NCBI GenBank assembly: GCA_035283785.1
Contig: DATETG010000005.1
Location: 2,902 to 66,901, forward strand
From: Candidatus Nanoarchaeia archaeon
GTDB taxonomy: Archaea > Nanobdellota > Nanobdellia > Pacearchaeales > GW2011-AR1
DNA length: 64,000 bases
Direction of reading: 5' to 3'
Below the pieces are notes generated by a model, which had not been told where the DNA came from, ran no database searches, and saw only the letters and a list, made by a program, of their open reading frames with translations. The first letter of the stretch is position 1. Each line of letters opens with the position of its first letter. Positions 7,492 to 37,971 of the stretch are shown here, piece after piece. A program made the translations under genes and the position numbers.

Positions 7492-7719
7492 TTGCATGTA
7501 GATATAGTAAAAAAAGGTGAAGATGCTAAAACAGAGTCTTTATTAAAAATTTCTGATTTTAAGGGGTTTATATCAAACTTACCTCCTGCTGTAAGAAAAA
7601 GAGCTAATTTTTTTGAAGTCTTGTGGGGAAATCATAGAGTCTTCGCCACTATAAAAAGAAATGATAAAAATTTGATGGTTTTACTTGTCTGTGACAATGA
7701 TCCTCAATCAATAACATGA
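7492..7719 (+). CDS. small protein with weak RelE/ParE-toxin-like features
   Basis: 75 aa. F..I..LPPAVRKR segment and HRVFATIK...LMVLLVCDN resemble the RelE/ParE fold pattern. The similarity is weak. Confidence 0.25.
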   Translation: MHVDIVKKGEDAKTESLLKISDFKGFISNLPPAVRKRANFFEVLWGNHRVFATIKRNDKNLMVLLVCDNDPQSIT

Positions 7720-8936
7720 GGTTCTGGAACAGGGATTATTATTTTTCCCCTGAAACCTTTTTGCCTTAGTTTTGGCACTATCACACTCTTTAAGTTCCAA
7801 GCCAAAAGCAATGCATATGTCGGTTGTGGTTCCTGAAAGAGAATTGATTCGTCCTTAATGGGAATGTGCATTCCCGGAGAGTACATTCCTACTTTCAAAC
7901 TTCCATATTCTAGCAAACAGTCAATTGTCTCTTTTCCTATTTTACAAAAATTTAATAGCGTATTCCCCTTTGCCGGAGCGCCAATCCCGACGATATTCCC
8001 ATGTTCTTTTGCTTTAAACAAGATTGAACGAATTTCCTTCATGTTGGAAAAAACCTTTTTCCCAAATGAATCATAAATTTTTCTCGAGTAAAGCCCAAAT
8101 TCTTCTTCTTCAATCAGAATTTTTTTCACGTTTTCAGATATGGGAAAATCTCCCTTTCCGCATGCATAAACTCTCAATGAACCGCCGTGAGTGGTAATCT
8201 TTTCCGCATCGAAAACATCCATATCAAACTTATCAAACAAGTAGATTAATGGTTTAAGAGAGTAATATCTCAAGTGTTCAGCGTAAATAGAATCGTACTC
8301 TGTTTCATGTAAAAGGTCTCTTATGTAGTGTGATTCTTCTATGAAAACACCTTTGGCATCTAAAAGAATTTTTATTCCATTCATAAAGGAATCCAATTCC
8401 CTAACATGAGCAAAAACGTTTGTTGCAGTTATTACTTTTGCTTTTCCATTTTCTCTGAGAATTCTAATTGCAGTTTTCTCGTTGAAAAAGTCTTTCATTG
8501 TTGGAACATTCTTTTTTTGCGCCATTTCGGCTGCTTTCGAAGGATCAACATTAAGTACTTTTATTCCATAAGGAAGATAATTTGAAAGCGATGTTCCGTC
8601 ATTACCTCCGATATCAACAGCAAAATCATTCCTCAACAGATTAAACTTTTTTATGACATTTTCTACCAGGGAATGAAAATTGTCCGCCAGTTCTTTACTT
8701 GAGCCAGTAGTATAAACAAAATCTTCCGTAAACAACAATTCTGGATTTGGGGCGTATCCCAACTGCACTAAGCAACAATCTTCACAAAAATAAACATCAA
8801 GGGGAAAATATATCTCAGGTTCTTTTAATTTTTCTTCTGTCAGAAATCCGTCAGGATTTGGGTGATGCCCTAATGATAAAAATTTATGCATCCTCTCGGA
8901 AGAGCAAATTTGGCATGTTAATTTTTCAGATTTCAT
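7704..8936 (-). CDS. NDP-hexose C-methyltransferase-like protein (TylCIII/NovU type: N-terminal Zn ribbon plus class I SAM MTase)
   Basis: CQIC...CEDCCLVQL zinc-ribbon N-terminus and DIGGNDGT SAM-binding motif. The start is set at the internal ATG at 8934-8936 (MKSEKLTCQIC). Confidence 0.7.
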   Translation of the reverse strand: MKSEKLTCQICSSERMHKFLSLGHHPNPDGFLTEEKLKEPEIYFPLDVYFCEDCCLVQLGYAPNPELLFTEDFVYTTGSSKELADNFHSLVENVIKKFNLLRNDFAVDIGGNDGTSLSNYLPYGIKVLNVDPSKAAEMAQKKNVPTMKDFFNEKTAIRILRENGKAKVITATNVFAHVRELDSFMNGIKILLDAKGVFIEESHYIRDLLHETEYDSIYAEHLRYYSLKPLIYLFDKFDMDVFDAEKITTHGGSLRVYACGKGDFPISENVKKILIEEEEFGLYSRKIYDSFGKKVFSNMKEIRSILFKAKEHGNIVGIGAPAKGNTLLNFCKIGKETIDCLLEYGSLKVGMYSPGMHIPIKDESILFQEPQPTYALLLAWNLKSVIVPKLRQKGFRGKIIIPVPEPHVID

Positions 8937-9086
8937 GGTCTTTGTTCCCCTTATAATTTCTTTTGGATTCTCGAAATAATCATGCACCCTGTTTTTCAGG
9001 CCAAGAAATGAAGTTGACAAATTTTCAGACATAAAAATCAATAAAAAACCTGATTTTTAAGTTTTGTGCAATTAACTCACCACAAA

Positions 9087-17799: not shown

Positions 17800-19047
17800 T
17801 TAATTTTTGCTTATCACTTTAAATGCAGGCAAAGGAACAATAAACTTAACCCCTCTCTCAAAAAGTCCATTTTCCTGTTTTTTTATTTCCTCGAAAAAAT
17901 GCCAAGTCATAACCAGCAGATAATCGGGATTTTTCTCCCTCATCTTCTCTGGAGAAACTATCGGAATCATGCTTCCAACTGTTTTCTTACCGTGCTTATC
18001 TGAATTTTTATCAGCAATGCAATCAACCAATTTTGCATCTAAATCGAAATACTGCAAGATTACATTACCTCTTGTAGAAGCTCCGTAAATGCAAATCTTT
18101 TTGCCGTTTTTCTTTTCATCCTTCAAAAAACCCACCAGGTCTTTCTTTATACCGTTTATTCTTAAGGCAAATTCGATGTATGGTTTTAATGTGTTTAAAC
18201 CCATCGCACTCTCTTTTCTTTCTATTTCACCAAATCTTTTTTCAAAATTTTTGAAAGGCCTTACATCCGCATTGTCCTGGAATTTAATGTAGGTCCTTAT
18301 GCTACCCCCGTTTATGTCATTAAGTTCCACATCAAAAATCTCTAAACCATATTTCTCTATAAGAGGTTTTAACGAGGTTAAAGAGTAATACTCTCTGTGT
18401 TCATGGCAGATGTTGTCAAAAGCGTTTTGTTCTAGCATTGACACCAGATAATTCTGCTGAATTACGAAAATTCCTTTTTTTTCCAAACATTCAACTATGT
18501 CTTTAACAAAATTATTTGGGTCTTCAAGATCGTAAAACATTGATATTGCAGTTATTATTTTTGCCTTTTTTCCTTGAAATTTTTCCTTGAAATTTTTTGC
18601 ATTAAAAAAGTTGTTTATTACGTTGAATCCTTTTGATGATGCCTCTCTGGCGACATTTTCAGATGGTTCAAATCCCACCAATTCTATTTCTTTGTTCTGA
18701 TAAAAACTCAGCAATGTTCCGTCATTGCATCCGATGTCCACAACAATATCTCCTTTATTCAACTTAACCAATTTTTCAGATTTTTGAACAATATCTTTTA
18801 AGTCCTCTTTTATTGTTGTGCTTATTCCCGATTTGTACCAATATTGTTTGCCCCACATTTTTTCAGGAGGAGCATTGTGCTTTAATTGCAATAATTTACA
18901 GTTCTGGCACAAGACTATCTCGAGAGGTATTTTTTCTTCCTTTTCATCAAACGAATCTACAAAATTGCTTATATACTGGTTACCTAGAGAGAGAATATCT
19001 GTTAAATTTTTATTATTACAAACTCTGCAATTTTTTATTTCAAACAT
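17800..19047 (-). CDS. NDP-hexose C-methyltransferase-like protein, paralog of 7704..8936
   Basis: CRVCNN...CQNCKLLQL zinc ribbon and VDIGCNDGT SAM motif. Start set at MFEIKNCRVC (ATG at 19045-19047). Confidence 0.7.
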   Translation of the reverse strand: MFEIKNCRVCNNKNLTDILSLGNQYISNFVDSFDEKEEKIPLEIVLCQNCKLLQLKHNAPPEKMWGKQYWYKSGISTTIKEDLKDIVQKSEKLVKLNKGDIVVDIGCNDGTLLSFYQNKEIELVGFEPSENVAREASSKGFNVINNFFNAKNFKEKFQGKKAKIITAISMFYDLEDPNNFVKDIVECLEKKGIFVIQQNYLVSMLEQNAFDNICHEHREYYSLTSLKPLIEKYGLEIFDVELNDINGGSIRTYIKFQDNADVRPFKNFEKRFGEIERKESAMGLNTLKPYIEFALRINGIKKDLVGFLKDEKKNGKKICIYGASTRGNVILQYFDLDAKLVDCIADKNSDKHGKKTVGSMIPIVSPEKMREKNPDYLLVMTWHFFEEIKKQENGLFERGVKFIVPLPAFKVISKN

Positions 19048-19048
19048 C

Positions 19049-19486
19049 TTATTTAAATATATTATTAATCCCGTCAAATGCAAGAATCGATTTTGGGAAT
19101 TTTTTCTTTAATTCTTCTTTTCTTACTAAAAGATTGCCTCCAAGCATGTTACCAACAATTCTTTGGAATATCCTTGAATTTCCTTCCTCTTGAACGTTGT
19201 GAAAAAAACAAAAATGCTTCTTTTCAAAAACTCTCTCGGGGATTAAAAGTGGAAAGGCCATGCTCCAATCTTGAGTGTATATTACATCATAGTTTTTTTC
19301 CTTGTCTCTCCTTTTTATCGCTTCCTTCAAAGTACCCATTGAACCTGACAATGAGTCAATGCCTAAGTCATCCTCTCTCGACAAAAGATCCACATTGTGT
19401 CCTTTTTCTTCAAGTTTTTGCTTTACACTCCTAACGATATCCCATGACTCTTCCTTCTTTTTCCTGAAAACAATAAGTATTTTCAT
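19049..19486 (-). pseudogene. truncated glycosyltransferase fragment: the N-terminal ~145 aa of a paralog of 24724..25626
   Basis: Aligns collinearly with residues 1-150 of the 300-aa protein at 24724..25626 (GHNVDLLSREDD / GHKVDFLSREDD; DWSMAFPLLIPERVFEKKHFCFFH / DWSFAFPLLFPKRIFKKNHICCFCGH). Its stop codon lies 1 nt from the C-MTase start. Confidence 0.6.
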
Positions 19487-24746: not shown

Positions 24747-25626
24747 AAATTTCAACCAGCGTCGCGGTCTTCCAGGAGGAGTAGGAAATGCAAACGAAGA
24801 AATTGCAAAAGAGATGGAAAAACTTGGGCACAAGGTAGACTTTTTGTCCAGGGAAGATGACATGAAAATTTATTCTCTGTGGAAATCTATATTCCCTATA
24901 AGAAAAAAAGTGAAGGAACTTATGAATAAAAATCATTATGAGGTTATATTCAGCCAAGATTGGAGTTTTGCCTTTCCTTTACTTTTCCCAAAAAGAATAT
25001 TCAAAAAAAATCACATCTGTTGTTTTTGTGGTCATCAAGAAAATTGGCTGATTTTTTTGCAAAATATTGTGGGAAAAATGATGGGAGAAAAATTAATTGT
25101 TATAGGGGATGACCTAAAGAAAAGGTTTCCAAAAGCAACATTAATCTACAGAGGTGTAAACTTCAGTAAGTTTAAGCCATTAAAGAGAAAAAGAGATTGT
25201 CTTTGTTGGACAGACAAGGGGGATGAATACAAGATGATTTCGGAAGATGAACTCGAAAAAATTGCAATTGAAAACAATTTAAAACTATCAATAGCAAAGG
25301 GAATCCCTTCCAACAAAATGAATGAATTTTACAACAAGTGTAAAGTTTTTATCAGCGTGCCCCCTCAAGCAGGATATAACAATTCCTGGAATGAATCGAT
25401 GGCGGCTGGCGTTCCGATAGTCATTGGTAACAACAAAGGAGGAGGAACAATGCTCCCATTAAACAGAATATCTAAAAATGAAGATAATGTAAAGAGGATA
25501 AATGAAATAATAAAAAACCCTAAAAAAATAAATTACAGAAAATGGCTGAGAGATAATGGATTCGCTTGGGAAAATGTTGCAAAGAAGATGATTAATTTTT
25601 TTGAAAAGGAAGTTATAACAAACTAA
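24724..25626 (+). CDS. small GT-B-like glycosyltransferase; full-length paralog of the fragment at 19049..19486
   Basis: 300 aa. The N-terminal half is homologous to 19049..19486. The C-terminal half carries a GT1-like ESMAAGVPIVIG segment. Confidence 0.5.
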   Translation: MKILIILKNFNQRRGLPGGVGNANEEIAKEMEKLGHKVDFLSREDDMKIYSLWKSIFPIRKKVKELMNKNHYEVIFSQDWSFAFPLLFPKRIFKKNHICCFCGHQENWLIFLQNIVGKMMGEKLIVIGDDLKKRFPKATLIYRGVNFSKFKPLKRKRDCLCWTDKGDEYKMISEDELEKIAIENNLKLSIAKGIPSNKMNEFYNKCKVFISVPPQAGYNNSWNESMAAGVPIVIGNNKGGGTMLPLNRISKNEDNVKRINEIIKNPKKINYRKWLRDNGFAWENVAKKMINFFEKEVITN

Positions 25627-27137
25627 TAGTTCTTCAACGTGGTTTTTAACAAGTTTAAATCTTCTTTATTAACCTCTTTTATTACGACCATCACAAAAAA
25701 GTAGGTTACAACTCCTATAATCACTTCCAAAATGCTGAAGATTGGAGCAATTTCAGTAAATAAAATTTCATAAATATACAAAACCAATGCCATAATTGCA
25801 GAGGCAATGATTGACCTCAAAAGAGGTTTATTGTCAAGTGCCATTTTAAATTGCTTCTTAACATCAGCCATAACTGCGACGAGAAGGAATGTTCTGCTTA
25901 TGACTGTGGCCAAGGCAGCCCCTATTATTGCATATTCTTGACTAAATTTTAAGAAGTATGTGATAAGAATATAATTCAAGACCACATTTAATATTAGAGA
26001 CATCACAGTTATTGTTGCCAGGATTTTGGTTCTATCTTTTGCTTTTAACAAATTTGAATAAAGTGATGATATCGGAGTTACAAAAAGTATGAGGGAGAGA
26101 GCCAATAGAACACCGACTGCATTTGAGTATTCACTTCCGTAAAAAAAACTTATTATTTCTTCTGAAACGAATAAAATTCCAACAACCGACGGGACCGAGA
26201 TTATCAATGTGTATCGCATTGATTTTGATATTGCTTTCTTCAATCTGTCTCCGTTAACCTGAGTGAATATGGGGAGGAAAATTCCTGAAATTGTAAAAAT
26301 AGCAACTAAGGAAATTATAACAGAAAAGGCCGCATGATAATAACCCACATAAGAAGTGTCTACAAACCTTCCAAGCATTAACGTATCAACAGAACCAAAC
26401 ATTATTAACGATATATTGATTATGCTCATAAATCCAAGATATTCCCATGTCTTCTTTTTGTTAAATTTAATTTTTTTCTTCGGAAAAAATCTGAATTTTT
26501 TTCTCTTCAAGATTATTATTATTGATATCAAAGAAACAAAGGAAGATGCCGCAAATGCCGCAAATATCGCAGAAACAGCCTCGACGCCAGAAAAAAGCAA
26601 CAAGGCAATAAATGAAAACAAAACCTTTGAACCGTGTAAAATTGTATAAACAAATGGGACATCTCTTAGATCATTTAATGCAAAGAACAAAATTCCAAAA
26701 AAGTTTCTCACCGCATTCACCAAGACGAAAAATATTGCAAATAAAAGGGGTATTACAATCTCCTGCTTGCCGAAAATATCATATGCAAAAAGCTTTGCAA
26801 ACAGAAATAGTCCCAATGCTCCGAAGATAATCAGAATAAACCTTACATTGAATAAATACCAAAAATAAGAAAGAGCTTCGTTTCTTTTGTTTTTTCCAAG
26901 TGATTCTGACATGTACCTAATTGCAGCCTCACCAATACCGAGATCAATAAATGAAAATACAATAACAACTATCGATAGGACAAGGGAATACACTCCAAAC
27001 AAGTCGGGCAAGAGCATTCTTGCAAGAAGTATTGTAAGAACGAAACCTCCTACCTTTGATATGAAGGTCGAAAGAGAATTGTAAAGGGTATTCTTCGCCG
27101 CTAGCAAAGACAAATTTTTCTGAATGTTAAATTTCAT
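25623..27137 (-). CDS. polysaccharide/oligosaccharide flippase (Wzx / MOP superfamily)
   Basis: 504 aa, about 12-14 predicted TM helices. N-terminal KNTLYNSLSTFISKVGGFVLTILLARML is typical of the polysacc_synt family. Confidence 0.75.
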   Translation of the reverse strand: MKFNIQKNLSLLAAKNTLYNSLSTFISKVGGFVLTILLARMLLPDLFGVYSLVLSIVVIVFSFIDLGIGEAAIRYMSESLGKNKRNEALSYFWYLFNVRFILIIFGALGLFLFAKLFAYDIFGKQEIVIPLLFAIFFVLVNAVRNFFGILFFALNDLRDVPFVYTILHGSKVLFSFIALLLFSGVEAVSAIFAAFAASSFVSLISIIIILKRKKFRFFPKKKIKFNKKKTWEYLGFMSIINISLIMFGSVDTLMLGRFVDTSYVGYYHAAFSVIISLVAIFTISGIFLPIFTQVNGDRLKKAISKSMRYTLIISVPSVVGILFVSEEIISFFYGSEYSNAVGVLLALSLILFVTPISSLYSNLLKAKDRTKILATITVMSLILNVVLNYILITYFLKFSQEYAIIGAALATVISRTFLLVAVMADVKKQFKMALDNKPLLRSIIASAIMALVLYIYEILFTEIAPIFSILEVIIGVVTYFFVMVVIKEVNKEDLNLLKTTLKNY

Positions 27138-27185: not shown

Positions 27186-28835
27186 TTACATTCTTAGTTT
27201 GTTCCAATTTTCACTCTTGAATAAAGAACTAAAGAAGAATTTTGCTGTAAATGTGCCGACATTTTTTATTGCCAACAACCTAAAGACATAGAAGATAACC
27301 TTTAGGTTTTTTTGTTTAATCATTGAGTAAACAGTGAATAGAAATATCTTTTGAAACACATTTGAAAAAACAGGGTAGTTCAGTTTTCCTATTTTTGTTG
27401 TTTTAACTAATGGGATTGAGATAAAAGACATGATATCACGACGGAAAAATTTGTTTTTTCTTCTTTTTAGTAGATTCTCGAAATCATGATAGTTCTCTAA
27501 AAGATATTCTCTAGAAACAGCAATCTGCTCAGGGATTATTAATCTTTCAAATTCCTCTAAATTCAATTCATTAAACGACTTAAGCATATCGACAAGAAGC
27601 AAATTCCCAAGTAGCTTGTCGAAAAAATAATAATCACAGATGCTAATCTGTTTTTTTGTAACATCCATAGCGCGAGACCGCAAATATTCCAGATATTCCA
27701 TATTTTCCGAGTCGTTAGATGAAAAACAAATGTAATCAAATCCTTCGGTAATTTTTTTAACGTAATCAAAGTTTTTTACTTCTTCTTTTTTTATCATCTT
27801 CATTTTTTTATTTGATTTTATTAACTTTGAAGAAAAAACATTCTCATTCTCCAACATTTTACCGAATAATTTTTGGTACTCCTGTGAGATGTTATGGTTT
27901 TTTATCGCTTTAGTGTAAGATTTTTCGGCAATTTTCTCTCGCGCCGTTTCATTTTTGAGGTAGTATGCAATCTTTTTTAACAATTCCTCGTTATTTTTGA
28001 ACATAACAATCTCCTCGTTATTTTTGAAGAATTTAAGATATCCTGAAAAGAAGTCGACGAGGCTAAAGGACTTGCATGCAGCAAACTCAAAAATTCTTCC
28101 TTTAAAATGCAATTTCCCATAACGGTTCTTAGAAAATGCCAAATTTATTTTACTCTGATTTACTATCTTAACAAATTTTTCTGAATCCGGAGAACCAAGA
28201 TAAACATCCCGGAATTCGGGATAATTTTCCCATCCTCTTCCGAAGATTTTCAAGTTAACTTTTTTATCCAAGAGAAATCTCACGATATCTAATCTGGGTT
28301 TGGAGGGCTGTCCAATGAAAGTTACATCATAAATCTTTTTCGTTTTTATCGGCTTAAAGATATCTGTATTTATGCTGATAGTGGGAAAAACGTTTTTTAT
28401 GCCTTCTTTCTTATATTCGGCCACATAATTTGGTTGTGCTATAAAATTACAATCTACAAATAAAGCCTGATATCTTTTTAATGTCTCGAACTCAGTATCA
28501 TCGTCGCCAACAAAAGCGATTACCTTGATCTTGGGAGATATTTTTTTTATTTCCGCCATCGTTTGTATTGTCAATTCGTCCCTCCCGACTATTAAAAAAA
28601 TATAATCAGGCATTTCTTTTTTTATTAAACTAGAGAACATCTGGTTCATTTTTTCTGAACCACGAGAAAACCTCTCTTTTCTTGGATCAAACAATATTGT
28701 TTTTCCAAATATATTTTTCAAAGGAAGATAGTAATTCTGATAAGGGGCTTCATTTTTACTAGATGCGCTCCACATTGCAAAAAGTATTTTCTGTTTTTTC
28801 AATACTCTCTCCAATTCTTCCTGTTTAATTTTCAT
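27186..28835 (-). CDS. CgeB-like glycosyltransferase domain (N-terminal ~310 aa) fused to a ~240-aa C-terminal domain of unknown function
   Basis: KIFGRGW and FKGRIFEFAACKSF motifs resemble the CgeB/Glyco_trans_1_2 family. The C-terminal region is unrecognised. Confidence 0.45.
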   Translation of the reverse strand: MKIKQEELERVLKKQKILFAMWSASSKNEAPYQNYYLPLKNIFGKTILFDPRKERFSRGSEKMNQMFSSLIKKEMPDYIFLIVGRDELTIQTMAEIKKISPKIKVIAFVGDDDTEFETLKRYQALFVDCNFIAQPNYVAEYKKEGIKNVFPTISINTDIFKPIKTKKIYDVTFIGQPSKPRLDIVRFLLDKKVNLKIFGRGWENYPEFRDVYLGSPDSEKFVKIVNQSKINLAFSKNRYGKLHFKGRIFEFAACKSFSLVDFFSGYLKFFKNNEEIVMFKNNEELLKKIAYYLKNETAREKIAEKSYTKAIKNHNISQEYQKLFGKMLENENVFSSKLIKSNKKMKMIKKEEVKNFDYVKKITEGFDYICFSSNDSENMEYLEYLRSRAMDVTKKQISICDYYFFDKLLGNLLLVDMLKSFNELNLEEFERLIIPEQIAVSREYLLENYHDFENLLKRRKNKFFRRDIMSFISIPLVKTTKIGKLNYPVFSNVFQKIFLFTVYSMIKQKNLKVIFYVFRLLAIKNVGTFTAKFFFSSLFKSENWNKLRM

Positions 28836-30102
28836 ATCCTTTTATTTTTTTAACATAAGTTCCTTTCTTTAATATTGAATAATCATCTACAATAATGTTC
28901 AATAAGAAGAGATATGGTTTCAAAAATATTCGCGGGACGCGTTTAATACTCCACCTCATTTTTGTCCTTAACCATATTCTTTTTCTGTAAAAATAGTAAA
29001 ATATCCTTCCTTTTGATTTCCAAGGATTTTTTATCAATTGAAGTTTTTGCTCTCTGGTTAATCTCAATTTTTCCAAATCTGCTTGAGGATTAATGTCAAT
29101 CTTTGATATTCTTTTTTTCCAGAACAAAGGAACCTCGTCAAGTGTAATCATCAAATCTGTTCCATCTTTTTTGTTGCGAAAAGAATAAAATCTGCTTGAA
29201 GGATTTATGTTAACCCATCCTTCTCTGTAATCATCATAACCGTATGCTATTTTTATTTTCTTTTCAAAAAATCCGGGAGGTATGAACAATGGGGGCACCA
29301 AATCCGAAGGGATAAAATAGCCGTATTTTTTCGTATGTGAGTAACCATCAAAGTGAGCCATTATCTCTTTTTTTGGAGATATTACTACCTGATTCTTAAT
29401 CTCCACGAATTTTGCAACTTCTTCTGATCTTCTTATGACCCCCCTCATTTTCTCTGAAGAGAACAAATGATTCAACAAATCTTTATGCATTATTTGTATT
29501 GAATCAAATATCCCTCCAGGAAAAGATGAAATAAGGAAACTATCTGTTTCCTTTAATACTTTAGAGTTTGGTCTTGAGAGTTCGTGAACGGGATTCAATG
29601 GTTTTGAAGCATTCAAAAATTCTGTAAAATGGCTAGGATAAATTGATAAAAAATTTCTTTCCTGTTTTTTCTTAAGTTTTTTTAATTCATTAATGCATAA
29701 TGCCAAAATTTTTTTGCTGGGTGCAATAAAGGGATGATCAACGTTGCCGGTATAAAAAACCCACTCATCTTCAAGGGAGTTTATCAACTTTAAAGATTCT
29801 AGAAATTTTTCCTGGCAATCTCCTCTTCCATAAATTAGATGTAATCTCTTCTTTGGAAATAATTTCTTTACCTCTCTCTCAAAATATTTTCTTTTCTTAG
29901 CTAGAGGATCATTGTTAATCTCGTACTTTATGACCACATCAGTCCAAGAAATTTCCGCATAACTAATTAAAGAGTACAGAGCTATGTTAATCTTGCTCGG
30001 CATTTTGTAAGGAGTTTTAGAATCTCTTATGTCTTCAAAATCCAAATAATGACCTTTTTGCCACGGCTCGTCTATTATCAAGTTATCAAAATATAATATC
30101 AT
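28825..30102 (-). CDS. hypothetical protein (425 aa) within the glycan cluster
   Basis: Long ORF, tightly packed, overlapping its neighbours by a few nt. No motif recognised. Confidence 0.3.
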   Translation of the reverse strand: MILYFDNLIIDEPWQKGHYLDFEDIRDSKTPYKMPSKINIALYSLISYAEISWTDVVIKYEINNDPLAKKRKYFEREVKKLFPKKRLHLIYGRGDCQEKFLESLKLINSLEDEWVFYTGNVDHPFIAPSKKILALCINELKKLKKKQERNFLSIYPSHFTEFLNASKPLNPVHELSRPNSKVLKETDSFLISSFPGGIFDSIQIMHKDLLNHLFSSEKMRGVIRRSEEVAKFVEIKNQVVISPKKEIMAHFDGYSHTKKYGYFIPSDLVPPLFIPPGFFEKKIKIAYGYDDYREGWVNINPSSRFYSFRNKKDGTDLMITLDEVPLFWKKRISKIDINPQADLEKLRLTREQKLQLIKNPWKSKGRIFYYFYRKRIWLRTKMRWSIKRVPRIFLKPYLFLLNIIVDDYSILKKGTYVKKIKGYEN

Positions 30103-30140
30103 GAAAAAACAGAAATATTAAGAGTTATAAGTTTTGCTGT

Positions 30141-30581
30141 TCAAGAAGATTTGTGCTCAGAAGGTATTCTCCCAGAACCTCTTCCTACGTCGTCCTCATG
30201 CCGGATTACGTCGTCAACTTCAGGGGTGGAACATTCAATTATTACAGAATCTTCCAAGGCAATAGTTCTATGTTTTTTAGGCGGGATAATCTCCCACAAT
30301 CCTCCTGCTTCAACAATTCTCTTTTCTATTTCTCCGCTGTCTTTTTCATACCACGCTTCCACCTTGCCTGCAAGAAGGTAATTTATCTCTCTTTTATTGC
30401 TATGGTGCTGGAAACTCATTCTCGTTCCTGCATTAATCTCAAGCATTTTCATAACATATCTCTTCTCAATTTCTCCTACCTCTTCTCCTGCACGATAATT
30501 CAACCATATTTCTCTACCCCATGGCTTAACTACAATTTTAGCATCATTTATGTTATACAGCCAATCTTCTTTTTCGCTCAT
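30141..30581 (-). CDS. cupin-domain protein (possible sugar isomerase/epimerase)
   Basis: WGREIWL...MSFQHHSNKREINYLLAG cupin-2-like two-His motif pattern. 146 aa. Confidence 0.5.
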   Translation of the reverse strand: MSEKEDWLYNINDAKIVVKPWGREIWLNYRAGEEVGEIEKRYVMKMLEINAGTRMSFQHHSNKREINYLLAGKVEAWYEKDSGEIEKRIVEAGGLWEIIPPKKHRTIALEDSVIIECSTPEVDDVIRHEDDVGRGSGRIPSEHKSS

Positions 30582-30625
30582 TTTATTTTTCCATTAGCCC
30601 CATATATAAGCATTTGTGTTTTTGA

Positions 30626-31348
30626 TTACAACCCTCCACTAACCTTCAATGTTTGTCCAGTCATATAAGTATTTTTATCACTAGCAAGAAAGAGTATCAT
30701 CTCGGCAATTTCTTCTGCCCTAGCCATTCTCCCAAGTGGAACTTGCTCCAACTGCTTCCTTGTTCTGTCAGTTAGTGTTGCGGTGGTCATGTCTGTTTCT
30801 GTAAATCCCGGAGCAACAGCATTAACCAAAATTCCATAAGGGGCGAGGTCTCTCGCCATGTTTGAAGTCAAGTCAATAATCAATGCTTTTGAGCCAGCAT
30901 AAGCCCAGCTCCCAGGGAAGTATTCATATCCTTTAACAGAAGACATATTAATTATTTTTCCGAATTTTCTTTTTTGCATTTGTGGCATTACTGCTTTTGA
31001 AAAATTGACAACGCCTAAAACATTTGTTTCCAAAGTCTTCCTCCAATCCCTCCCTGTTTGTTCCATATATGGTTTCGAGAGATTTATCCCCGCATTATTT
31101 ATCAAGATATCCACTCTTCCAACTTTCTCGACCCCTCTCTTAACAGATATTTCATCAGCAACATCACAGAAAATATACTGGGAACCTATCTCTTCAGCAA
31201 GATTGATTAATCTTTTTGATTCTGTTTTTCCGTGCAACACCACCCTTGCCCCATAAGTTCTAGCCATGTGTGCTGTTGCCGCACCTATTCCTCTAGATGA
31301 ACCTGTTATCAGCATCGTTCTTCCTTCTAAACCGTAACAATTATCCAT
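30626..31348 (-). CDS. short-chain dehydrogenase/reductase (FabG-like SDR)
   Basis: TGSSRGIGAATA (TGxxxGIG), NNAG, and S...YAGSKAL (YxxxK) motifs. Confidence 0.85.
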   Translation of the reverse strand: MDNCYGLEGRTMLITGSSRGIGAATAHMARTYGARVVLHGKTESKRLINLAEEIGSQYIFCDVADEISVKRGVEKVGRVDILINNAGINLSKPYMEQTGRDWRKTLETNVLGVVNFSKAVMPQMQKRKFGKIINMSSVKGYEYFPGSWAYAGSKALIIDLTSNMARDLAPYGILVNAVAPGFTETDMTTATLTDRTRKQLEQVPLGRMARAEEIAEMILFLASDKNTYMTGQTLKVSGGL

Positions 31349-32333
31349 AATGGTTTATTACCTCCACCATCTCATTAATTATACTCTCTCTTATGTCTTC
31401 TCTTTCTTCCAATTTTTTCATTATCTCTTTATACTTTTCCGAGCCGAAATGATAATGCCCTGCAATTAGCAAACAGAGAAATTTATTTTCCCCACTATTT
31501 GATTGCATCCATTTTTTCCATTTCATTCCTCCATAAACCTCCTCAATAAAATCATTAAAATCTATCCCGTAAATTAAGCACTTTGATATCATAATACTTG
31601 TTTGTATAACTCCTAATTGAGGGGCAATATTCATGGCATCTACAACTCCCTTTCTTAATTCAATTTCTTCTCTTGGGAGATAATCTGCATTATGCTCTTT
31701 TAGTTTCAGACCTTTCGAGTCCAAGATCTTTTTTACTTTTTCTATGAAGGGCCTATTAAAATTGCCGACTTGATTTATCTCTTTTACAAGACTTCCTGTT
31801 TGAACAACATAAAATTCAGGCTTGCAAAATCCTTTGAAAAAATCTATCTCTCTTTCAAGTTCGTGTAAGTTTGAGACATTGAAATTTATTCCCTCATTTT
31901 CGTCTGTTCCTATTTCCAACATTATTTTAGGATTTAACTTGAGGCAATATTCTATTGCTTTTTTTGACTCATTTAACATTTCTTCCTTGCTTCCTCGGAA
32001 ATGGCAAAAATCTATGTGTATTAAATCAAATCCATTTTCAATATCTGACTTAATTGTTTTGTAAACATTCTCCAAGTCAAAATTTCCATTAAAGCCCGGG
32101 CCACAATGGTCTCGGCAAATTAAGACCTGAGAATTCGGATATTTTTCTCTCATCGATTTTATAAAACTCATAAATTCTCTTGTATCCCACTTGTTCACAT
32201 AACCGCCATCATAGTCTATCTGGTTTTTTGAAGCGATTAGCATTAATTCCTTTCTTTGATAATGCGAAACCCTAAAAACAGCCTCGATAACTTCTGAGCT
32301 CATTGGTCCTACGGCCAAATTAGACTTAATCAT
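31341..32333 (-). CDS. GatZ/KbaZ-family (tagatose-6-phosphate kinase / sugar-phosphate 4-epimerase-like) TIM-barrel protein
   Basis: The N-terminus aligns with E. coli GatZ: LMLIASKNQIDYDGGY vs LIEATSNQVNQFGGY; DTREFMSFI vs DFREFVFAI; LICRDHCGPG vs ILGGDHLGPN. It is shorter (330 aa) than GatZ. Confidence 0.55.
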   Translation of the reverse strand: MIKSNLAVGPMSSEVIEAVFRVSHYQRKELMLIASKNQIDYDGGYVNKWDTREFMSFIKSMREKYPNSQVLICRDHCGPGFNGNFDLENVYKTIKSDIENGFDLIHIDFCHFRGSKEEMLNESKKAIEYCLKLNPKIMLEIGTDENEGINFNVSNLHELEREIDFFKGFCKPEFYVVQTGSLVKEINQVGNFNRPFIEKVKKILDSKGLKLKEHNADYLPREEIELRKGVVDAMNIAPQLGVIQTSIMISKCLIYGIDFNDFIEEVYGGMKWKKWMQSNSGENKFLCLLIAGHYHFGSEKYKEIMKKLEEREDIRESIINEMVEVINHYG

Positions 32334-33937
32334 TTTTTCACATCCTTCTTCATTTCCAGATTATTTAAGGCGTAATAAAGCTTGTTTTTTCCCATAAAGT
32401 ATAGCATCAAATTAAAGGGTTCCTGATGTAAGGGACTCATATTCAAAAAAATCAAAGCAGTTATAATTCTAATTTTGTCCAAATCAAAACCATGTTTTGT
32501 CAAAAAAGATTCGTACTCTTCTCTTGCTTCTATCAAATTATTACTTATCTTGTAGTCATAATAGATACTGTCCCCAGATATGTCAAATGAAAATTCTCCT
32601 TTCTTTATCGACTTGTATGAAATATTTGTCCCCCCATAAAGTTTGGCCAGATCATAATATAAATCTCCAAAATCCAAAGATTTTCCAAATTCATGTCTCC
32701 AATCCAGTAAGATAAATTTATTCAGGTTGCTGAGATTGTTTCGTGTAACCAAAACATTATCGAACTGCAAGTCTCCGTGAAAATTCACGGGTGTGCCCTC
32801 CTCCAAATAGTTCCAATCTATCTTATTCAAAAGTTCTTTTAGTGGTGGAATTTGAACTCCATTAACATTGCTCCATGAATCTTCAATTCTTGTCTTTTCA
32901 TAGAATCTTTTCAAACGTTCGAGAGTTTTATCATAATAAAATTCTTTGCAGGATTTTCTGAATTTTTCTTTTTCTTCTTCTGAGAGATTAATATCCTTCC
33001 ACAAATTAACCTTCAACCACCTTAAAAAATCTCGTACTATCTGCCTGTCTAGGACATCATAAAGAACCTGCCCGTCAATCATTTTATATGAATAAAAATT
33101 TCCCTTTTTTGATTCAACGACAGGACATAATCCTTTAAGATAATTGCTCCTGATTATTCTCTTTTCAACAATATCTTTTTCTGAAAAATATTTCACAACT
33201 TTTCCGTTTACAAAGTAAATGAATTCATTACTCTTACTAAAGTCGAACTCCTTGCCCCCTCCTGAAAAATTTTCATTTGTTTCTTTGTAGTTTTCAAGTG
33301 TTCCCGTATCAAACCACGTGAAACCGACAGGAACCAGCTTGTTATTTATCAATCTGTTGAAACCGTTTGAAACTTGGATTTCACCACTTTTTATTTCCTT
33401 ATCTTTCTCCAAACCTTCAAAAAAGTCCAAGTAGTCTCTCACTCCGGCAAGTCCTATAAATGCGAATTTGTTGTTTGTCTTTATTTTGTCATCAAGCTGA
33501 TAAACCAAGTTATTTTTTATCTTGACAGTGCAATACTTTTCAGTTTCCTTGACAGGAGCAATCCCAAACCAATTTTCATCCGGCTCTGGAATTTTTTCCA
33601 GCACAAGTGTGTCTGCCGCGAAAAAAATGAACGGGCACTGTAAATGACTTTTGCACTGAAACAAAGAGTAACCGGGTCCTGTTCCGGGCCCCAAGAACCT
33701 ATCAACTTCAACGTAAGTTATTTTTCTTTCAGGATGTGCGATATTCAGATAATCAATTATTGTCTCTTTTTTATGTCCAATTGCAACAACAATCTCTACA
33801 TCATCTGAAAATTTTTCTATTATGTGAGAAATAACTGCCTTGAAATTTATTGGCAATATCGCTTTGTTAACATTTTCTGAAAGTGCGCCAATCCTACTCC
33901 CTACGCCTGCTGCAAGGATACAAACTTTATATTTCAT
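32330..33937 (-). CDS. bifunctional protein: N-terminal sugar-phosphate nucleotidyltransferase fused to a C-terminal APH/choline-kinase-like kinase
   Basis: N-terminus KVCILAAGVGSRIG (NTP_transferase G-loop). The C-terminus has FHGDLQFDNVLV (Brenner HGDLxxxN catalytic loop) and LDWRHEFG (D-x-E/R of APH-type kinases). Confidence 0.65.
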   Translation of the reverse strand: MKYKVCILAAGVGSRIGALSENVNKAILPINFKAVISHIIEKFSDDVEIVVAIGHKKETIIDYLNIAHPERKITYVEVDRFLGPGTGPGYSLFQCKSHLQCPFIFFAADTLVLEKIPEPDENWFGIAPVKETEKYCTVKIKNNLVYQLDDKIKTNNKFAFIGLAGVRDYLDFFEGLEKDKEIKSGEIQVSNGFNRLINNKLVPVGFTWFDTGTLENYKETNENFSGGGKEFDFSKSNEFIYFVNGKVVKYFSEKDIVEKRIIRSNYLKGLCPVVESKKGNFYSYKMIDGQVLYDVLDRQIVRDFLRWLKVNLWKDINLSEEEKEKFRKSCKEFYYDKTLERLKRFYEKTRIEDSWSNVNGVQIPPLKELLNKIDWNYLEEGTPVNFHGDLQFDNVLVTRNNLSNLNKFILLDWRHEFGKSLDFGDLYYDLAKLYGGTNISYKSIKKGEFSFDISGDSIYYDYKISNNLIEAREEYESFLTKHGFDLDKIRIITALIFLNMSPLHQEPFNLMLYFMGKNKLYYALNNLEMKKDVKK

Positions 33938-34409
33938 TTTTTTCCAAAAAAACCTTGTTTATTTTTATGCAGGCGTCGCACACAGCGCCTTCCCCTGATT
34001 TTGAAGGAGTCACATATTTTGCCCATCTTTTTGCTTCAATTCTTGCATTCGCGGGAGCAATTCCAAATTTGCACTCTTTAATTATCTGCGAGTCAAAAAT
34101 TCCATCTCCAATAAAAATCATGTTGTTAAAATCAAAATTTTTCTTCAGCCATTCATATCTATTCCCGTCCGGAACAAGCTGAATCTTATAGCCCATGTCT
34201 TTTATCCTTCTTTTTGAAATTGAAAATCCTCTTTTGTCGGCGGAAATGAAAAGAATATTGAGTTTATCTTTGATTAACTTCAACCCGTCTGCGTCATGAG
34301 GTCCAAAAATCTTGTGAGATTTTCCCTTCGAGTCATACAAGAATTGTCCCGTAGTCATTACTCCATCTACATCTATGATTAAGTCCATTTTTTCCATCGT
34401 GTCTTGCAA
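33927..34409 (-). CDS. HAD-superfamily phosphatase, KdsC/YrbI subfamily (Kdo-8-P / NeuNAc-9-P phosphatase-like)
   Basis: DVDGVMTTGQ (DxDGVxTDG motif I), a small 160-aa size, and a C-terminal GDGIFD motif. Confidence 0.7.
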   Translation of the reverse strand: MQDTMEKMDLIIDVDGVMTTGQFLYDSKGKSHKIFGPHDADGLKLIKDKLNILFISADKRGFSISKRRIKDMGYKIQLVPDGNRYEWLKKNFDFNNMIFIGDGIFDSQIIKECKFGIAPANARIEAKRWAKYVTPSKSGEGAVCDACIKINKVFLEKNEI

Positions 34410-34502
34410 TGAGCAATCTTTATACTTCTAATTAAGTATCTTATCTGCTCGGTTACACAAGTTTTTCAAGAATAGTGAATTTATAAGTTTTGTGAAGAAT
34501 TA

Positions 34503-36041
34503 TCAGTCCTTTTGGATTTTTTTGACAATGTCTGAAAATGCAGGTCTGGTAATCAAAACTCCTGCAGTTATTCCTATTATTGTCGTGAGGGCAAACCCTT
34601 TGAAAAATCCTGCCGCAGCCCAGTAAAGAGGAATCATTGCAACAAGTCCTGTGAAGTAAGCGGCAACAATAATCACAAGCGCGCGCTTTAGTCGGAAGTT
34701 AATACTGGAGGATTTTTCCCTTGATTCATCCAAAATTATTATCTGCTGGTCGATCCCTGTTCCAATCGTGGCCAGAATTCCTGCAATGCTCGGCAAGTCA
34801 AGATTCCATCTTATTAACGACGCTATTCCAAGAATTATTATCACTTCTGAAATACTTGTAAATATCAGGGCGAGAGAAGATTTGAAGTTCCTGTACCTCA
34901 AGAAAACGAAAATGGAGACTGCAAACAATGAAACAATTCCTGCAATGAGGATTGATTTTGAAAACTCATCTCCAAATGACGAAGAAATAGTGTCCAGTTT
35001 GACAATTTCCAATTTGTAAGGTAAGCTTCCCGTTATTAGAATTGTTTGTAAACGGTTCATGCTATTGAAAGCATCTTCATAGGCATCGTCTTCTGTCTCT
35101 CCGAATCCAGAGCCTGTAATGGAAATCTGCGTTGTAACCTGTCCTTTTAGTCCCTCGTTGATAAACAATGAATCCACAAGTTTACCATCTATGAAAAGGT
35201 CTAACTTTTTTGAGAGATAGTTCCCGTCTGCCGACGAGTTAGTTCCCAATTTGGAGGTTATGTCTGCATGTCTTTTTGCAGCATCTTCACTCAGAAAGAT
35301 TGTAAATCTGAAATTGCAAAAATAAAATTCCGTTGACTTTTGACAGGATTCGATGACTGCCTGCTCACCTGAACGAGCCACAGAAGTGATGTCTTTCTCT
35401 CCACCGACAAAAACGACTTCCTCTCCAATTTTTGCTTCAAATTTTCCCTGCTCAGATATCAACGCACGCAAATCTTCAGGAGTTGTGCCGGCTATTTCAA
35501 CTCTTACATATTCATCTCCAGAAAGATCAGATACTTTGGAAACTGAAACATCTTCTATTCCGTAGACATTAAATCTGTTTCTTATCAAATCAACCAAGTC
35601 ATTAGTTTCTTCAGACGAAAGAGAAACATCCTGCGGCTTTACGAGAGCGCGAGAACCTCCAGAAATATCCAACCCTGTTACAAGATTTGTTTTTGGAATC
35701 TCAGAGACTGTTATTTCAGGAAAATCATTTGTAAAAAAGATAATCTCGGAGTCCTTGGTGTTTATTACTGTCTTTAAATTATTTTCCGAAGGAAATTTTT
35801 GATTCATTATCAAAAGATAATCTTCCAAACTTGTTACTTTTTTTCCATCGACAAATTCTATTATCTGCCCTTTCTGTAAACCCTCATTAGACGCTGTTGA
35901 ATTGGATTCGACACTTGTAACCAAAACTCCCTCCTGAAAGATTTTTGTGGGTGAACCAAATATTGAGAGCAATGAAAGTAACAAAATAACAATCAAAAGC
36001 CAGATTCTCCAGGTAAAATCAATTTTCATGTTTTTCCACAT
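34503..36041 (-). CDS. secD: protein-export membrane protein SecD
   Basis: N-terminal TM, a large periplasmic domain, and a C-terminal 6-TM bundle. Adjacent to and overlapping secF, the typical archaeal secDF arrangement. Confidence 0.8.
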   Translation of the reverse strand: MWKNMKIDFTWRIWLLIVILLLSLLSIFGSPTKIFQEGVLVTSVESNSTASNEGLQKGQIIEFVDGKKVTSLEDYLLIMNQKFPSENNLKTVINTKDSEIIFFTNDFPEITVSEIPKTNLVTGLDISGGSRALVKPQDVSLSSEETNDLVDLIRNRFNVYGIEDVSVSKVSDLSGDEYVRVEIAGTTPEDLRALISEQGKFEAKIGEEVVFVGGEKDITSVARSGEQAVIESCQKSTEFYFCNFRFTIFLSEDAAKRHADITSKLGTNSSADGNYLSKKLDLFIDGKLVDSLFINEGLKGQVTTQISITGSGFGETEDDAYEDAFNSMNRLQTILITGSLPYKLEIVKLDTISSSFGDEFSKSILIAGIVSLFAVSIFVFLRYRNFKSSLALIFTSISEVIIILGIASLIRWNLDLPSIAGILATIGTGIDQQIIILDESREKSSSINFRLKRALVIIVAAYFTGLVAMIPLYWAAAGFFKGFALTTIIGITAGVLITRPAFSDIVKKIQKD

Positions 36042-37169: not shown

Positions 37170-37261
37170 TGCCCGGGTAGCTCAGTCTGGATTAGAGCGA
37201 CGCACTCCTAAAATTAATTTGAAGTGATGCGTAGGTCGCAGGTTCAAATCCTGTCTCGGGC
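37170..37261 (+). tRNA. tRNA-Arg (anticodon CCT) with a ~16-nt intron next to the anticodon loop
   Basis: Acceptor GCCCGGG/CUCGGGC, anticodon stem ACGCA/UGCGU with loop CUCCUAA. A 16-nt insert (AATTAATTTGAAGTGA, 37211-37226) lies between the loop and the 3' stem strand. T-arm GCAGG-UUCAAAU-CCUGU. Confidence 0.7.
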
Positions 37262-37359
37262 GCTCATAATAAAGATAGGATTTCTAATCAGTTTAAAGAA
37301 ATTCGGATAGGAAAGTTTGCAAGAAAACTTCGTGTTCTTGCAAATCCTGTCTGGCGCTT

Positions 37360-37374
37360 GGAAAGGTTTAAAAA
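37360..37374 (+). promoter_or_regulatory. BRE/TATA-like promoter element (GGAAAGGTTTAAAAA) about 22 nt upstream of the predicted 5S rRNA 5' end
   Basis: Purine-rich BRE-like GGAAAG followed by TTTAAAAA at the expected spacing from the 5S start (~37394). The identical 15-mer recurs at 55613-55627. Confidence 0.45.
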
Positions 37375-37391
37375 ACCCGGTGACAAGATAG

Positions 37392-37510
<119 letters not shown>

Positions 37511-37551
37511 ATATTCTTTAAATTTATAAAATAAAGAATTATTATGGTTCT

Positions 37552-37971
37552 ATGAATGAAGAAATATTTAGCAAGGAAATAGGTGAACATATCCGCAACC
37601 GGCATTTATGCAGAAGAATGTATGCCATTATAGATGGGCAATTAAAAGTAGATGAATCTAATGACCCGAGACATCACTGGGAATGGTTTGTCGAGGAAGG
37701 ATGGATTAAGGATTTGAATGATCCAATATTCGCAGAAATTGTAAGAGGTAATGTGACTAACGAAGGTGATCTCCATTTTTACATCGGAAAAGATTTTGGG
37801 ATTGATATTGAATCAGAAAGAATATTCTTTAAATTTTTGCCTGAAATTATAAAAAAGATGAATGTAAATCCCAGAGCAAGAATACTGGGTGGAAAGATAA
37901 AAGGAGATATCATGGATGACTTATGGCCTTCTCAAAAAGAATATGGTTTTGCAAAAGATTATTCAAATTAA
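37552..37971 (+). CDS. hypothetical protein (139 aa)
   Basis: Clean ORF immediately upstream of Rpp21. No motif recognised. Confidence 0.3.
   Translation: MNEEIFSKEIGEHIRNRHLCRRMYAIIDGQLKVDESNDPRHHWEWFVEEGWIKDLNDPIFAEIVRGNVTNEGDLHFYIGKDFGIDIESERIFFKFLPEIIKKMNVNPRARILGGKIKGDIMDDLWPSQKEYGFAKDYSN

Follow-up and report, generated by a model that had tools for sequence, protein, structure and literature searches.

During heptose activation, the kinase HldE or HddA, the phosphatase GmhB and the nucleotidyltransferase HddC act in this order, via a 1,7-bisphosphate. To our knowledge, the cases in which a kinase and a phosphatase bypass a mutase are so far limited to heptoses, the arabinosylation of phage DNA and acarbose, and almost every known rare sugar arises through the tailoring of a nucleoside diphosphate (NDP) sugar that is already activated. 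Here, we describe a five-gene module at positions 30141-34409 of a 64,000-nucleotide stretch of DNA from a Candidatus Nanoarchaeia archaeon (the whole stretch is referred to as the window). The module encodes a haloacid dehalogenase (HAD) phosphatase, a nucleotidyltransferase-kinase fusion protein, a GatZ-like TIM barrel, a short-chain dehydrogenase/reductase (SDR) and a cupin. We propose, with a probability of about 0.5, that the five genes form an operon for the de novo synthesis of a nucleotide-activated rare aldose, which would serve the AglB/Wzx-dependent surface glycan of the surrounding gene island.

Three described systems bear on the module. In acarbose biosynthesis, the conversion of valienol 7-phosphate (V7P) to valienol 1,7-diphosphate (V1,7PP), valienol 1-phosphate (V1P) and finally GDP-valienol by AcbU, AcbJ and AcbR was shown experimentally (PMC9200736). 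As reported in PMC13326640, phages that arabinosylate 5-hydroxycytosine use a pathway in which an arabinose-5-phosphate isomerase yields D-arabinose 5-phosphate, AfhE converts it to arabinose 1,5-bisphosphate, the HAD phosphatase AfhF releases arabinose 1-phosphate and the N-terminal domain of AfhE forms UDP-arabinose. AfhE consists of an N-terminal nucleotidyltransferase and a C-terminal aminoglycoside phosphotransferase (APH)-like kinase, and is reported there to act both as a kinase on D-arabinose 5-phosphate and as a UDP-arabinose pyrophosphorylase. The pathway is described there for E. coli phage HY126, on the basis of experiments by He et al. cited in that source, with homologues in RB69 (gp55, gp52:53 and gp51) and DLP3 (gp83, gp82 and gp81). 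Lastly, E. coli GatZ and KbaZ are C4 epimerases that convert fructose 6-phosphate to tagatose 6-phosphate; Asp87 is catalytic, His88, Glu171 and His257 are metal ligands, and Lys279 and Glu44 are GatZ-specific (PMC11907403).

An open reading frame (ORF) check of the window confirmed five minus-strand ORFs. In the order in which they are read, they encode a KdsC-like HAD phosphatase (33927-34409, 160 aa), the fusion protein (32330-33937, 535 aa), a GatZ/KbaZ-fold, class-II-aldolase-like TIM barrel (31341-32333, 330 aa), a classical FabG-like SDR (30626-31348, 240 aa) and a small cupin resembling phosphomannose isomerase (PMI) type II (30141-30581, 146 aa). Each of the first three genes shares its end with the start of the next one (11, 4 and 8 nt), and 44 nt separate the SDR gene from the cupin gene; given this spacing, the five genes look translationally coupled. 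An earlier reading of this DNA (the original prediction) had proposed five co-directional genes with the same protein identities, and our ORF coordinates and family assignments agree with it.

The five genes also occur together elsewhere. We fetched 80 loci from species-representative genomes and screened their ORFs; 54 of these loci had at least 4 kb on each side of the fusion gene (full-flank loci), and a partner was counted if it lay on the same strand within 4 kb. The cupin gene was present in 54/54 full-flank loci, an oxidoreductase gene (SDR or shikimate-dehydrogenase (SDH)-like, never both) in 51/54, the GatZ-like gene in 50/54 and the HAD gene in 45/54, and all five components were found in 42/54. 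Moreover, the fusion protein is naturally fused with the GatZ-like protein in two loci (L046 and L049) and with the cupin in another (L081). The grouping goes far beyond chance and recurs in dozens of unrelated genomes, which bears out the proposal that the genes are one functional set. The cupin and the SDR had been described as completing this set; they do belong to it, but an accessory role does not fit, as no other partners of the fusion are conserved as strongly as the cupin and the oxidoreductase. Recurrent neighbours of the module are methyltransferases, B12-radical-SAM enzymes, glycosyltransferases and Wzx flippases, which argues that the module is anabolic and serves glycan synthesis. 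No NCBIfam model names any module component, and the cassette has no name in Pfam or NCBIfam. Taken together, these data identify a real, widespread and uncharacterised nucleotide-sugar module.

The N-terminal domain of the fusion (about residues 1-228; 33254..33937, minus strand) has a sugar-1-phosphate nucleotidyltransferase fold and matches PF12804 and PF00483, both above cut-off. The C-terminal domain (about residues 229-535; 32330..33253, minus strand) is an APH/choline-kinase-fold kinase with the motifs H387-G-D389-x4-N394 and D412-W-R, and we propose that it is a C1 (anomeric) kinase. Structural comparison gave neighbours of the RmlA-like fold for the former, including MurU and the inositol-phosphate and ribitol-phosphate cytidylyltransferases, and of the APH fold for the latter. 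LicC is the best Protein Data Bank (PDB) sequence match of the N-domain (E 5e-6, 18% identity; E 1.8e-7 with a profile), and HddC is among its weak matches. In hhalign comparisons, the window fusion family aligned with RB69 gp52, the kinase half of the AfhE homologue, over 236 columns (E 5.9e-5, probability 65%) with the HGDxxFxN and DxR motifs in register, and with RB69 gp53 at E 1.2e-4 (probability 55%). The alignment with ORF047 of Enterococcus phage 9183, an uncharacterised HAD-adjacent protein, was full-length with a probability of 99.4%.

The architecture of the fusion is widely kept. More than 2,300 close homologues with 60-75% identity occur in DPANN archaea and bacteria of the candidate phyla radiation (CPR), and a profile search of 1.84 billion representatives gave 818 clusters (50% identity) at E<=1e-30, nearly all of 510-545 aa and matched over their full length. 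The same library repeatedly contains longer forms that are extended at the N- or C-terminus, and a search of plasmids for a homologue found none. Stand-alone paralogues of about 235-240 aa that resemble the nucleotidyltransferase domain lie beside the gene for the full-length fusion in some loci (L007, 2264-2968; L046, 6769-7497; L049, 10841-11563) and may reflect the use of a second nucleotide or a regulatory subunit.

The GatZ-like protein matches PF08013 with 33.7 bits (cut-off 26.7) over residues 13-112 only, which is its N-terminal third, and falls far short of the NCBIfam equivalogs of the GatZ/KbaZ family (TIGR02810), with 30.9 bits against a cut-off of 568.8. Its structural model (pLDDT 85.8) retrieved E. 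coli GatZ (2fiq; TM 0.81, E 5.9e-13) and 3txv as the top Foldseek matches, and class II fructose-bisphosphate aldolases scored lower (TM about 0.53). When the protein is aligned with GatZ and GatY of E. coli, D75-H76 (D87-H88 in GatZ) and H214 (H257) are invariant, D144/E145 lies at the position of GatZ Glu171, and the C1-phosphate loop HGxSG of GatY is absent, as it is in GatZ. The similarity to GatZ that had been predicted is thus genuine in fold and in the Asp-His and His catalytic/metal residues, and the possibility of a false match of the KdsA/NeuB type was ruled out by the fold search and the residue alignment. We propose that the protein is a metal-dependent retro-aldol C4 epimerase or an aldolase that acts on a ketose phosphate with a free C1-hydroxyl.

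Taken by itself, the window cupin gave only a weak Cupin_2 match (E 0.0034). As a family, however, 15/16 members match PF01050, the C-terminal domain of phosphomannose isomerase (best E 5.3e-10), and share the motifs KPWGxE, SxQ(H/Y)HxxKxE and HR, with Q58, H60, E65 and H104, a putative metal-binding Q/H/E/H set, invariant. This resemblance to PMI argues for a ketose-to-aldose isomerase, and the cupin probably converts a ketose phosphate to an aldose phosphate. Several larger cupin ORFs were also seen: in Legionella-type loci, about 120 aa are added to the cupin as a further N-terminal domain (the GatZ-like protein there has about 390 aa), and among L038 (8455-9672), L048 (9154-10341), L009 (11323-12264) and L013 (11456-12484) are Omnitrophota loci in which the module cupin is fused to a GT2-like glycosyltransferase and two DPANN loci with a bicupin, whose second cupin domain is divergent. 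The bicupins and cupin-GT2 fusions say nothing on the pathway.

The SDR matches PF13561 (E 2.7e-58) and PF00106 (E 6.5e-51) and reached no NCBIfam equivalog cut-off. Over the 80 loci, an SDR orthologue was found in 21, an SDH-like protein in 44 and both in 0; the SDH-like partner is close to the SdhL model NF009202 (246-261 bits). Such mutual exclusion is the signature of non-orthologous displacement at one required step. We propose that the SDR carries out an NAD(P)-dependent step on a sugar phosphate, with no fixed place in the order. The idea that the oxidoreductase and a neighbouring methyltransferase are partners in making a keto-sugar was rejected, the methyltransferase being found in 30/50 loci independently of the type of oxidoreductase.

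The HAD protein matches the KdsC subfamily model TIGR01670 at E 2.5e-16 with 60.0 bits, below the curated cut-off of 106.95, and NF007019 with 44.4 bits (cut-off 208), and is KdsC-like rather than KdsC. Its best PDB match is 2p9j (E 4.9e-16), aligned end to end, followed by KdsC 4um5 (E 4.7e-14). It has the motifs DVDGV (motif I) and GDGIFD (motif IV) and, with its 160 aa, a cap-less size. By analogy with AfhF, AcbJ and GmhB, we propose that it is the distal phosphatase acting on a sugar 1,omega-bisphosphate.

From the observed folds, conserved catalytic residues and gene-set linkage, we infer the substrates, the order of the steps and the nucleotide used as follows. First, by a metal-dependent retro-aldol/aldol reaction, the GatZ-like barrel would re-set C4 (possibly also C3) in a common ketose phosphate whose C1-hydroxyl is free, most likely turning fructose 6-phosphate into tagatose 6-phosphate. 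The PMI-like cupin would then convert the ketose phosphate to an aldose phosphate, which by analogy with PMI should be the 'manno-type' C2 epimer, that is, talose 6-phosphate if the substrate is tagatose 6-phosphate. One NAD(P)-dependent step, to which no place in the order is assigned, would fall to the SDR, or to the SdhL-type protein in most other genomes. Next, the APH-fold C-domain of the fusion would phosphorylate the anomeric hydroxyl to give a sugar 1,omega-bisphosphate, from which the KdsC-like HAD would take off the distal phosphate; together, these two reactions would be an ATP-driven substitute for a phosphomutase. Finally, the N-domain of the fusion would join the sugar 1-phosphate with a nucleoside triphosphate, and the resulting NDP-sugar would be consumed by the neighbouring glycosyltransferases, Wzx and AglB.

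The original prediction had likewise arrived at a nucleotide-activated rare sugar, and this remains the most likely product. It had placed dephosphorylation before re-phosphorylation at C1; the characterised kinase/HAD/nucleotidyltransferase systems phosphorylate C1 first, and we adopt this order because AfhE/AfhF, AcbU/AcbJ/AcbR and HldE/GmhB all pass through a 1,omega-bisphosphate. It also lacked a ketose-to-aldose isomerisation, the step that the PMI-like cupin probably supplies. That the sugar is talose specifically is distinctly unlikely. A broader possibility, to which we give a substantial but minority chance, is that the nucleotide-activated product is a sugar, or a unit resembling one, for which no NDP-conjugate has yet been described. 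NDP-D-talose would be a candidate, as would another rare hexose whose configuration a retro-aldol epimerase sets; so would a pseudo-sugar or L-sugar that depends on the redox step.

Several observations weigh against the proposed route. Its main weakness is the near-universal oxidoreductase to which it assigns no step, although this component is more conserved than the HAD (51/54 versus 45/54 loci). The real chemistry may therefore differ: it may lead to a keto-sugar, an alditol or a cyclitol, or build an L-sugar from an oxidised triose, and the redox step may also supply an acceptor aldehyde by oxidation. In the barrel, the GatZ-specific positions are replaced (Lys279 by Asn235, as in true aldolases, and Glu44 by Ala), and the protein could be an aldolase or transaldolase instead of an epimerase. 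The kinase domain shows only weak sequence homology to AfhE. Moreover, the HAD gene is absent within 4 kb of the fusion in 9/54 full-flank loci, and the HAD proteins belong to different subfamilies, KdsC-like in the module and PNKP-like in the phages, so the phosphatase step is analogous and not orthologous.

Five other explanations were considered. An order as in salvage pathways, in which dephosphorylation by the HAD comes first, C1 of the free sugar is phosphorylated next by the APH-like domain and nucleotidylation follows with no bisphosphate, is unlikely. AmgK, NahK and Fkp phosphorylate free sugars at C1. APH-fold anomeric kinases of free sugars exist, for example AmgK, which is paired with MurU, a structural match of the N-domain. 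AcbU also acts on free valienol at about 20% of the rate with the 7-phosphate, and AcbJ dephosphorylates V7P as fast as V1,7PP (PMC9200736). However, AfhE, the only characterised enzyme of exactly this architecture, is reported to convert a 5-phosphate to a 1,5-bisphosphate (PMC13326640). Additionally, known substrates of KdsC-type phosphatases carry an anionic group at the anomeric end, which a 1-phosphate would mimic, and the release of a free rare sugar in the cell would be wasteful.

The product might instead be a CDP- or NDP-activated alditol or other alcohol phosphate, comparable to CDP-ribitol or CDP-glucitol, for a phosphodiester-linked decoration of the glycan. Here, the oxidoreductase would reduce the ketose or aldose phosphate, the kinase and the phosphatase would shift the phosphate to the other end, and a LicC/TarI-like nucleotidyltransferase would activate it. 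This would give the near-universal oxidoreductase a clear role, and classical SDRs such as sorbitol-6-phosphate dehydrogenase reduce ketose phosphates. It would also suit the N-domain, with LicC as its best PDB sequence match and inositol- and ribitol-phosphate cytidylyltransferases as structural neighbours. The universally conserved isomerase, however, would be redundant, and we consider an alditol improbable.

There is a similarly small chance that the logic proposed above holds for a sugar other than a hexose: a pentofuranose (D-arabinose, or L-arabinose or L-ribose via C4 epimerisation of xylulose 5-phosphate) or a heptose formed with a transaldolase-like GatZ-like protein. A PMI-like isomerase acting on ribulose 5-phosphate would yield arabinose 5-phosphate, in which the C2 configuration is that of mannose, and the window protein has an aldolase-like Asn at GatZ position 279. 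Furthermore, the only characterised relative of the fusion handles arabinofuranose 5-phosphate, as reported in PMC13326640. Yet from ribulose 5-phosphate the cupin, the fusion and the HAD would suffice, which would leave the GatZ-like protein (50/54) and the oxidoreductase (51/54) without explanation, and hexulose 6-phosphates are the substrates for which the GatZ family has a known activity (PMC11907403).

A carbocyclic pseudo-sugar (cyclitol) is very improbable. In such a route, the SDH-like protein or the SDR would reduce a ring ketone, and the barrel would close the ring by an intramolecular aldol reaction. The proximity of the SDH-like partner to SdhL would fit, as shikimate dehydrogenases work on carbocycles, and GDP-valienol is made with the same order of kinase, HAD and nucleotidyltransferase (PMC9200736). 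On the other side, we know of no class II aldolase-like cyclase, the module has no sugar-phosphate cyclase (DHQS/EEVS-like or MIPS-like), and a FabG-type SDR freely substitutes for the SDH-like enzyme.

It is barely credible that the fusion is a LicC-LicA (LicCA) enzyme making CDP-choline for phosphocholine decoration, with the other genes unrelated, and this reading was rejected: the LicC match is weak and partial, the window fusion has no match to the choline-kinase family PF01633, many other APH-fold kinases score just as well, no lic-type neighbours (the choline transporter LicB or the phosphocholine transferase LicD) were recognised among the window or recurrent neighbour families, and the fusion is universally and tightly linked, sometimes physically fused, to sugar-phosphate enzymes. 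The original prediction would have been overturned by two findings together, closest homologues of the fusion among characterised LicA/LicC-type phosphocholine enzymes and a spurious similarity to GatZ. Neither was obtained: the GatZ similarity holds as described above, and the fusion has no close homology to LicC or LicA and is not a characterised LicA/LicC enzyme.

Homologues of the fusion were also found in phages and viruses. In a tblastn search of phage genomes, distant homologues that match over the full length came from Enterococcus phages 9183, Planchet and TJE4, and a closer one from a marine viral contig. In phage 9183 (MT939241, 5412-9845; L084), the fusion ORF047 sits between a small PNKP-like HAD gene and ORF048, which encodes a PF13524 glycosyltransferase-like protein, in a region that also encodes a thymidylate-synthase homologue and a dUTPase. 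This cassette looks like an undescribed DNA glycosylation (hypermodification) system of Enterococcus phages. In the marine virus contig AG-345-E15 (MH319741, 7655-10483; L085), genes for the cupin, a fusion with 32.6% identity to the window protein and the GatZ-like protein lie in a row. Either a virus carries most of the module or the DNA is cellular, as the contig comes from a single amplified cell.

In the window, the 11-mer AAAACTTATAA, which resembles a TATA box, lies 72 nt upstream of the HAD start (34481..34491, minus strand) and is the candidate promoter of the five-gene unit. A second copy at the downstream module boundary (30125..30135, minus strand) lies 23 nt upstream of the gene at 28825-30102. 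These are the only 2 copies in the window, both on the minus strand at gene starts, compared with 0.24 expected by chance, and at least 2 matches occurred in 2/100 shuffles. Being placed at both ends, the pair brackets the five genes. This gives modest support for one transcription unit of five genes, with AAAACTTATAA as its putative promoter.

Upstream of the module are genes for SecD/SecF, tRNAs and 5S rRNA. The SecD homologue directly upstream (34503-36041, minus strand) has weak PDZ matches at residues 34-79 (PF17820, E 5.9e-5, below cut-off). The 92-nt tRNA gene at 37171-37262 (plus strand) was found by Rfam and not by ARAGORN, and may have an intron or be atypical. The 5S rRNA gene (37396-37510, plus strand) stands alone, with no 16S or 23S gene in the window, and is overlapped by a 105-aa ORF (37288-37605, minus strand) that is probably spurious.

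Downstream and in the same orientation follow genes for a 425-aa protein, a PF13524 glycosyltransferase-like protein and a Wzx flippase. The 425-aa protein (28825..30102, minus strand) gave no Pfam, NCBIfam or PDB match, and none of its 265 homologues has a name. It is 100% identical to a protein from a metagenome-assembled genome labelled Candidatus Nanoarchaeia archaeon, which places the window in a DPANN archaeon. It is a frequent neighbour that adjoins the module in 11/83 loci, from DPANN, Saccharibacteria, Planctomycetota and Verrucomicrobiota, and has the invariant motifs N120-x-D-H-P, H250-F-D and P275-x-G-F-F. Possibly this protein is a transferase dedicated to the new sugar. A comparison by hhalign showed no relation between it and the PF13524 glycosyltransferase-like neighbours. 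The 549-aa PF13524 protein (27186..28835, minus strand; E 1.2e-23) probably uses the activated sugar; proteins of this type also lie 3' of the module in L001 and L011 and 3' of the phage 9183 fusion. The Wzx-type flippase (25623..27137, minus strand; PF01943, E 4.1e-23) is the last gene of the co-directional run. The rest of the island encodes AglB (1345-4026), several GT1/GT4 glycosyltransferases, one GT10, an RmlA-like nucleotidyltransferase, a 4,6-dehydratase and a UDP-glucose dehydrogenase. Two TylC3-type C-methyltransferases in the island (7704-9041 and 17800-19083, both minus strand; PF08421, PF13489 and PF08484) suggest branched-chain sugars in the DPANN glycan.

The carriers of the module are DPANN archaea, CPR bacteria, many other bacteria and some viruses. 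At 36-50% identity, they include metagenome-assembled genomes (MAGs) labelled Legionella, Arcobacter, Sedimenticola, SAR86, Pelagibacteraceae, Omnitrophota, Planctomycetota and Elusimicrobia. In the Legionella-type loci (L070, 6348-7172, and 12 others), a 274-aa protein with an NDTE motif is encoded between the GatZ-like and cupin genes; it has no Pfam match, and its sole faint match is the GT-A glycosyltransferase GalT1 (E 0.23). Among loci L004-L083, fusions in bins labelled Gammaproteobacteria, Pseudomonadales and Bdellovibrionales are 63-68% identical to the archaeal protein and lie in CPR-like gene orders. The taxon labels of some MAG bins look unreliable, and claims of inter-domain transfer should therefore rest on long, well-binned contigs.

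If the product is indeed a sugar or sugar-like unit that is new as an NDP-conjugate, the 60-75% protein identity between DPANN and CPR would suggest that ultra-small episymbionts have recently exchanged a surface-glycan determinant across domains, and the orphan SdhL class of shikimate-dehydrogenase-like proteins would gain a function. With 818 clusters in DPANN, CPR, Legionella-, Arcobacter-, SAR86- and Pelagibacter-like genomes and some viruses, the cassette is common. Solving it would give glycan-prediction tools a new monosaccharide pathway, provide the first functional context for SdhL-type proteins and the short GatZ subfamily, and yield a marker of gene exchange between ultra-small archaea and bacteria.

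How the module relates to known systems differs between its parts. A literature search on this gene combination, on anomeric kinase fusions and on talose or tagatose nucleotide sugars found nothing relevant. The barrel shares with E. coli GatZ/KbaZ (2fiq) the fold, the Asp-His pair, the second metal-binding His, the SNQ motif and the lack of a C1-phosphate loop. It is, however, only about 19% identical and 90 residues shorter, with a sequence alignment confined to the N-terminal third, and its context is anabolic, whereas that of the E. coli proteins is galactitol or GalNAc catabolism. In AmgK/MurU and LicA/LicC (LicCA), which are structural neighbours, an APH-fold kinase is likewise paired or fused with a LicC/MurU-type nucleotidyltransferase, but the substrates are free MurNAc/GlcNAc or choline taken up from outside, and the genes have no link to those for sugar-phosphate epimerases, isomerases or phosphatases.

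The ADP- and GDP-heptose pathways (GmhA, HldE/HddA, GmhB and HddC) resemble the module in having a ketose-phosphate isomerase, an anomeric kinase, a HAD-IIIA phosphatase and a nucleotidyltransferase, and HldE also fuses a kinase to a nucleotidyltransferase. Unlike the fusion described here, HldE combines a ribokinase-fold kinase with a cytidylyltransferase-fold transferase and HddA is a GHMP kinase, none of which has homology to the APH-fold domain; the two systems are alike in their logic and not by family membership. In the GDP-valienol route, the sequence from 7-phosphate via 1,7-diphosphate and 1-phosphate to the NDP-conjugate also replaces a mutase, and reductases and an epimerase act upstream on a phosphorylated intermediate. 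Separate enzymes are used there, for a cyclitol substrate that comes from a cyclase absent here, in actinomycete secondary metabolism.

The phage AfhE pathway is alike in the fusion architecture, the adjoining small HAD gene, a preceding ketose-to-aldose isomerase and a detectable but weak sequence homology, and it follows the same step logic of isomerisation, C1 phosphorylation, removal of the distal phosphate and nucleotidylation. It differs in that its isomerase is a SIS-domain protein and not a PMI-like cupin, it has no counterpart of the GatZ-like barrel and the oxidoreductase, and its product goes to DNA, while that of the window would go to a cellular surface glycan. Because the HAD and the isomerase belong to other subfamilies and the homology to AfhE is weak, we call the activation half AfhE-like, short of counting it as a tested member of the AfhE family. 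The original prediction had recognised no described pathway in the combination. This stands for the sugar-making half (the GatZ-like protein, the cupin and the SdhL-type protein or SDR), which matches none in the searched literature, but not for the activation half, which has a described counterpart in AfhE/AfhF. Unlike the usual tailoring of NDP-sugars, the module apparently sets the stereochemistry first, at the level of the sugar phosphate, and activates the sugar afterwards; if its product is new as an NDP-conjugate, its sugar-making half would be a new way to diversify sugars before activation.

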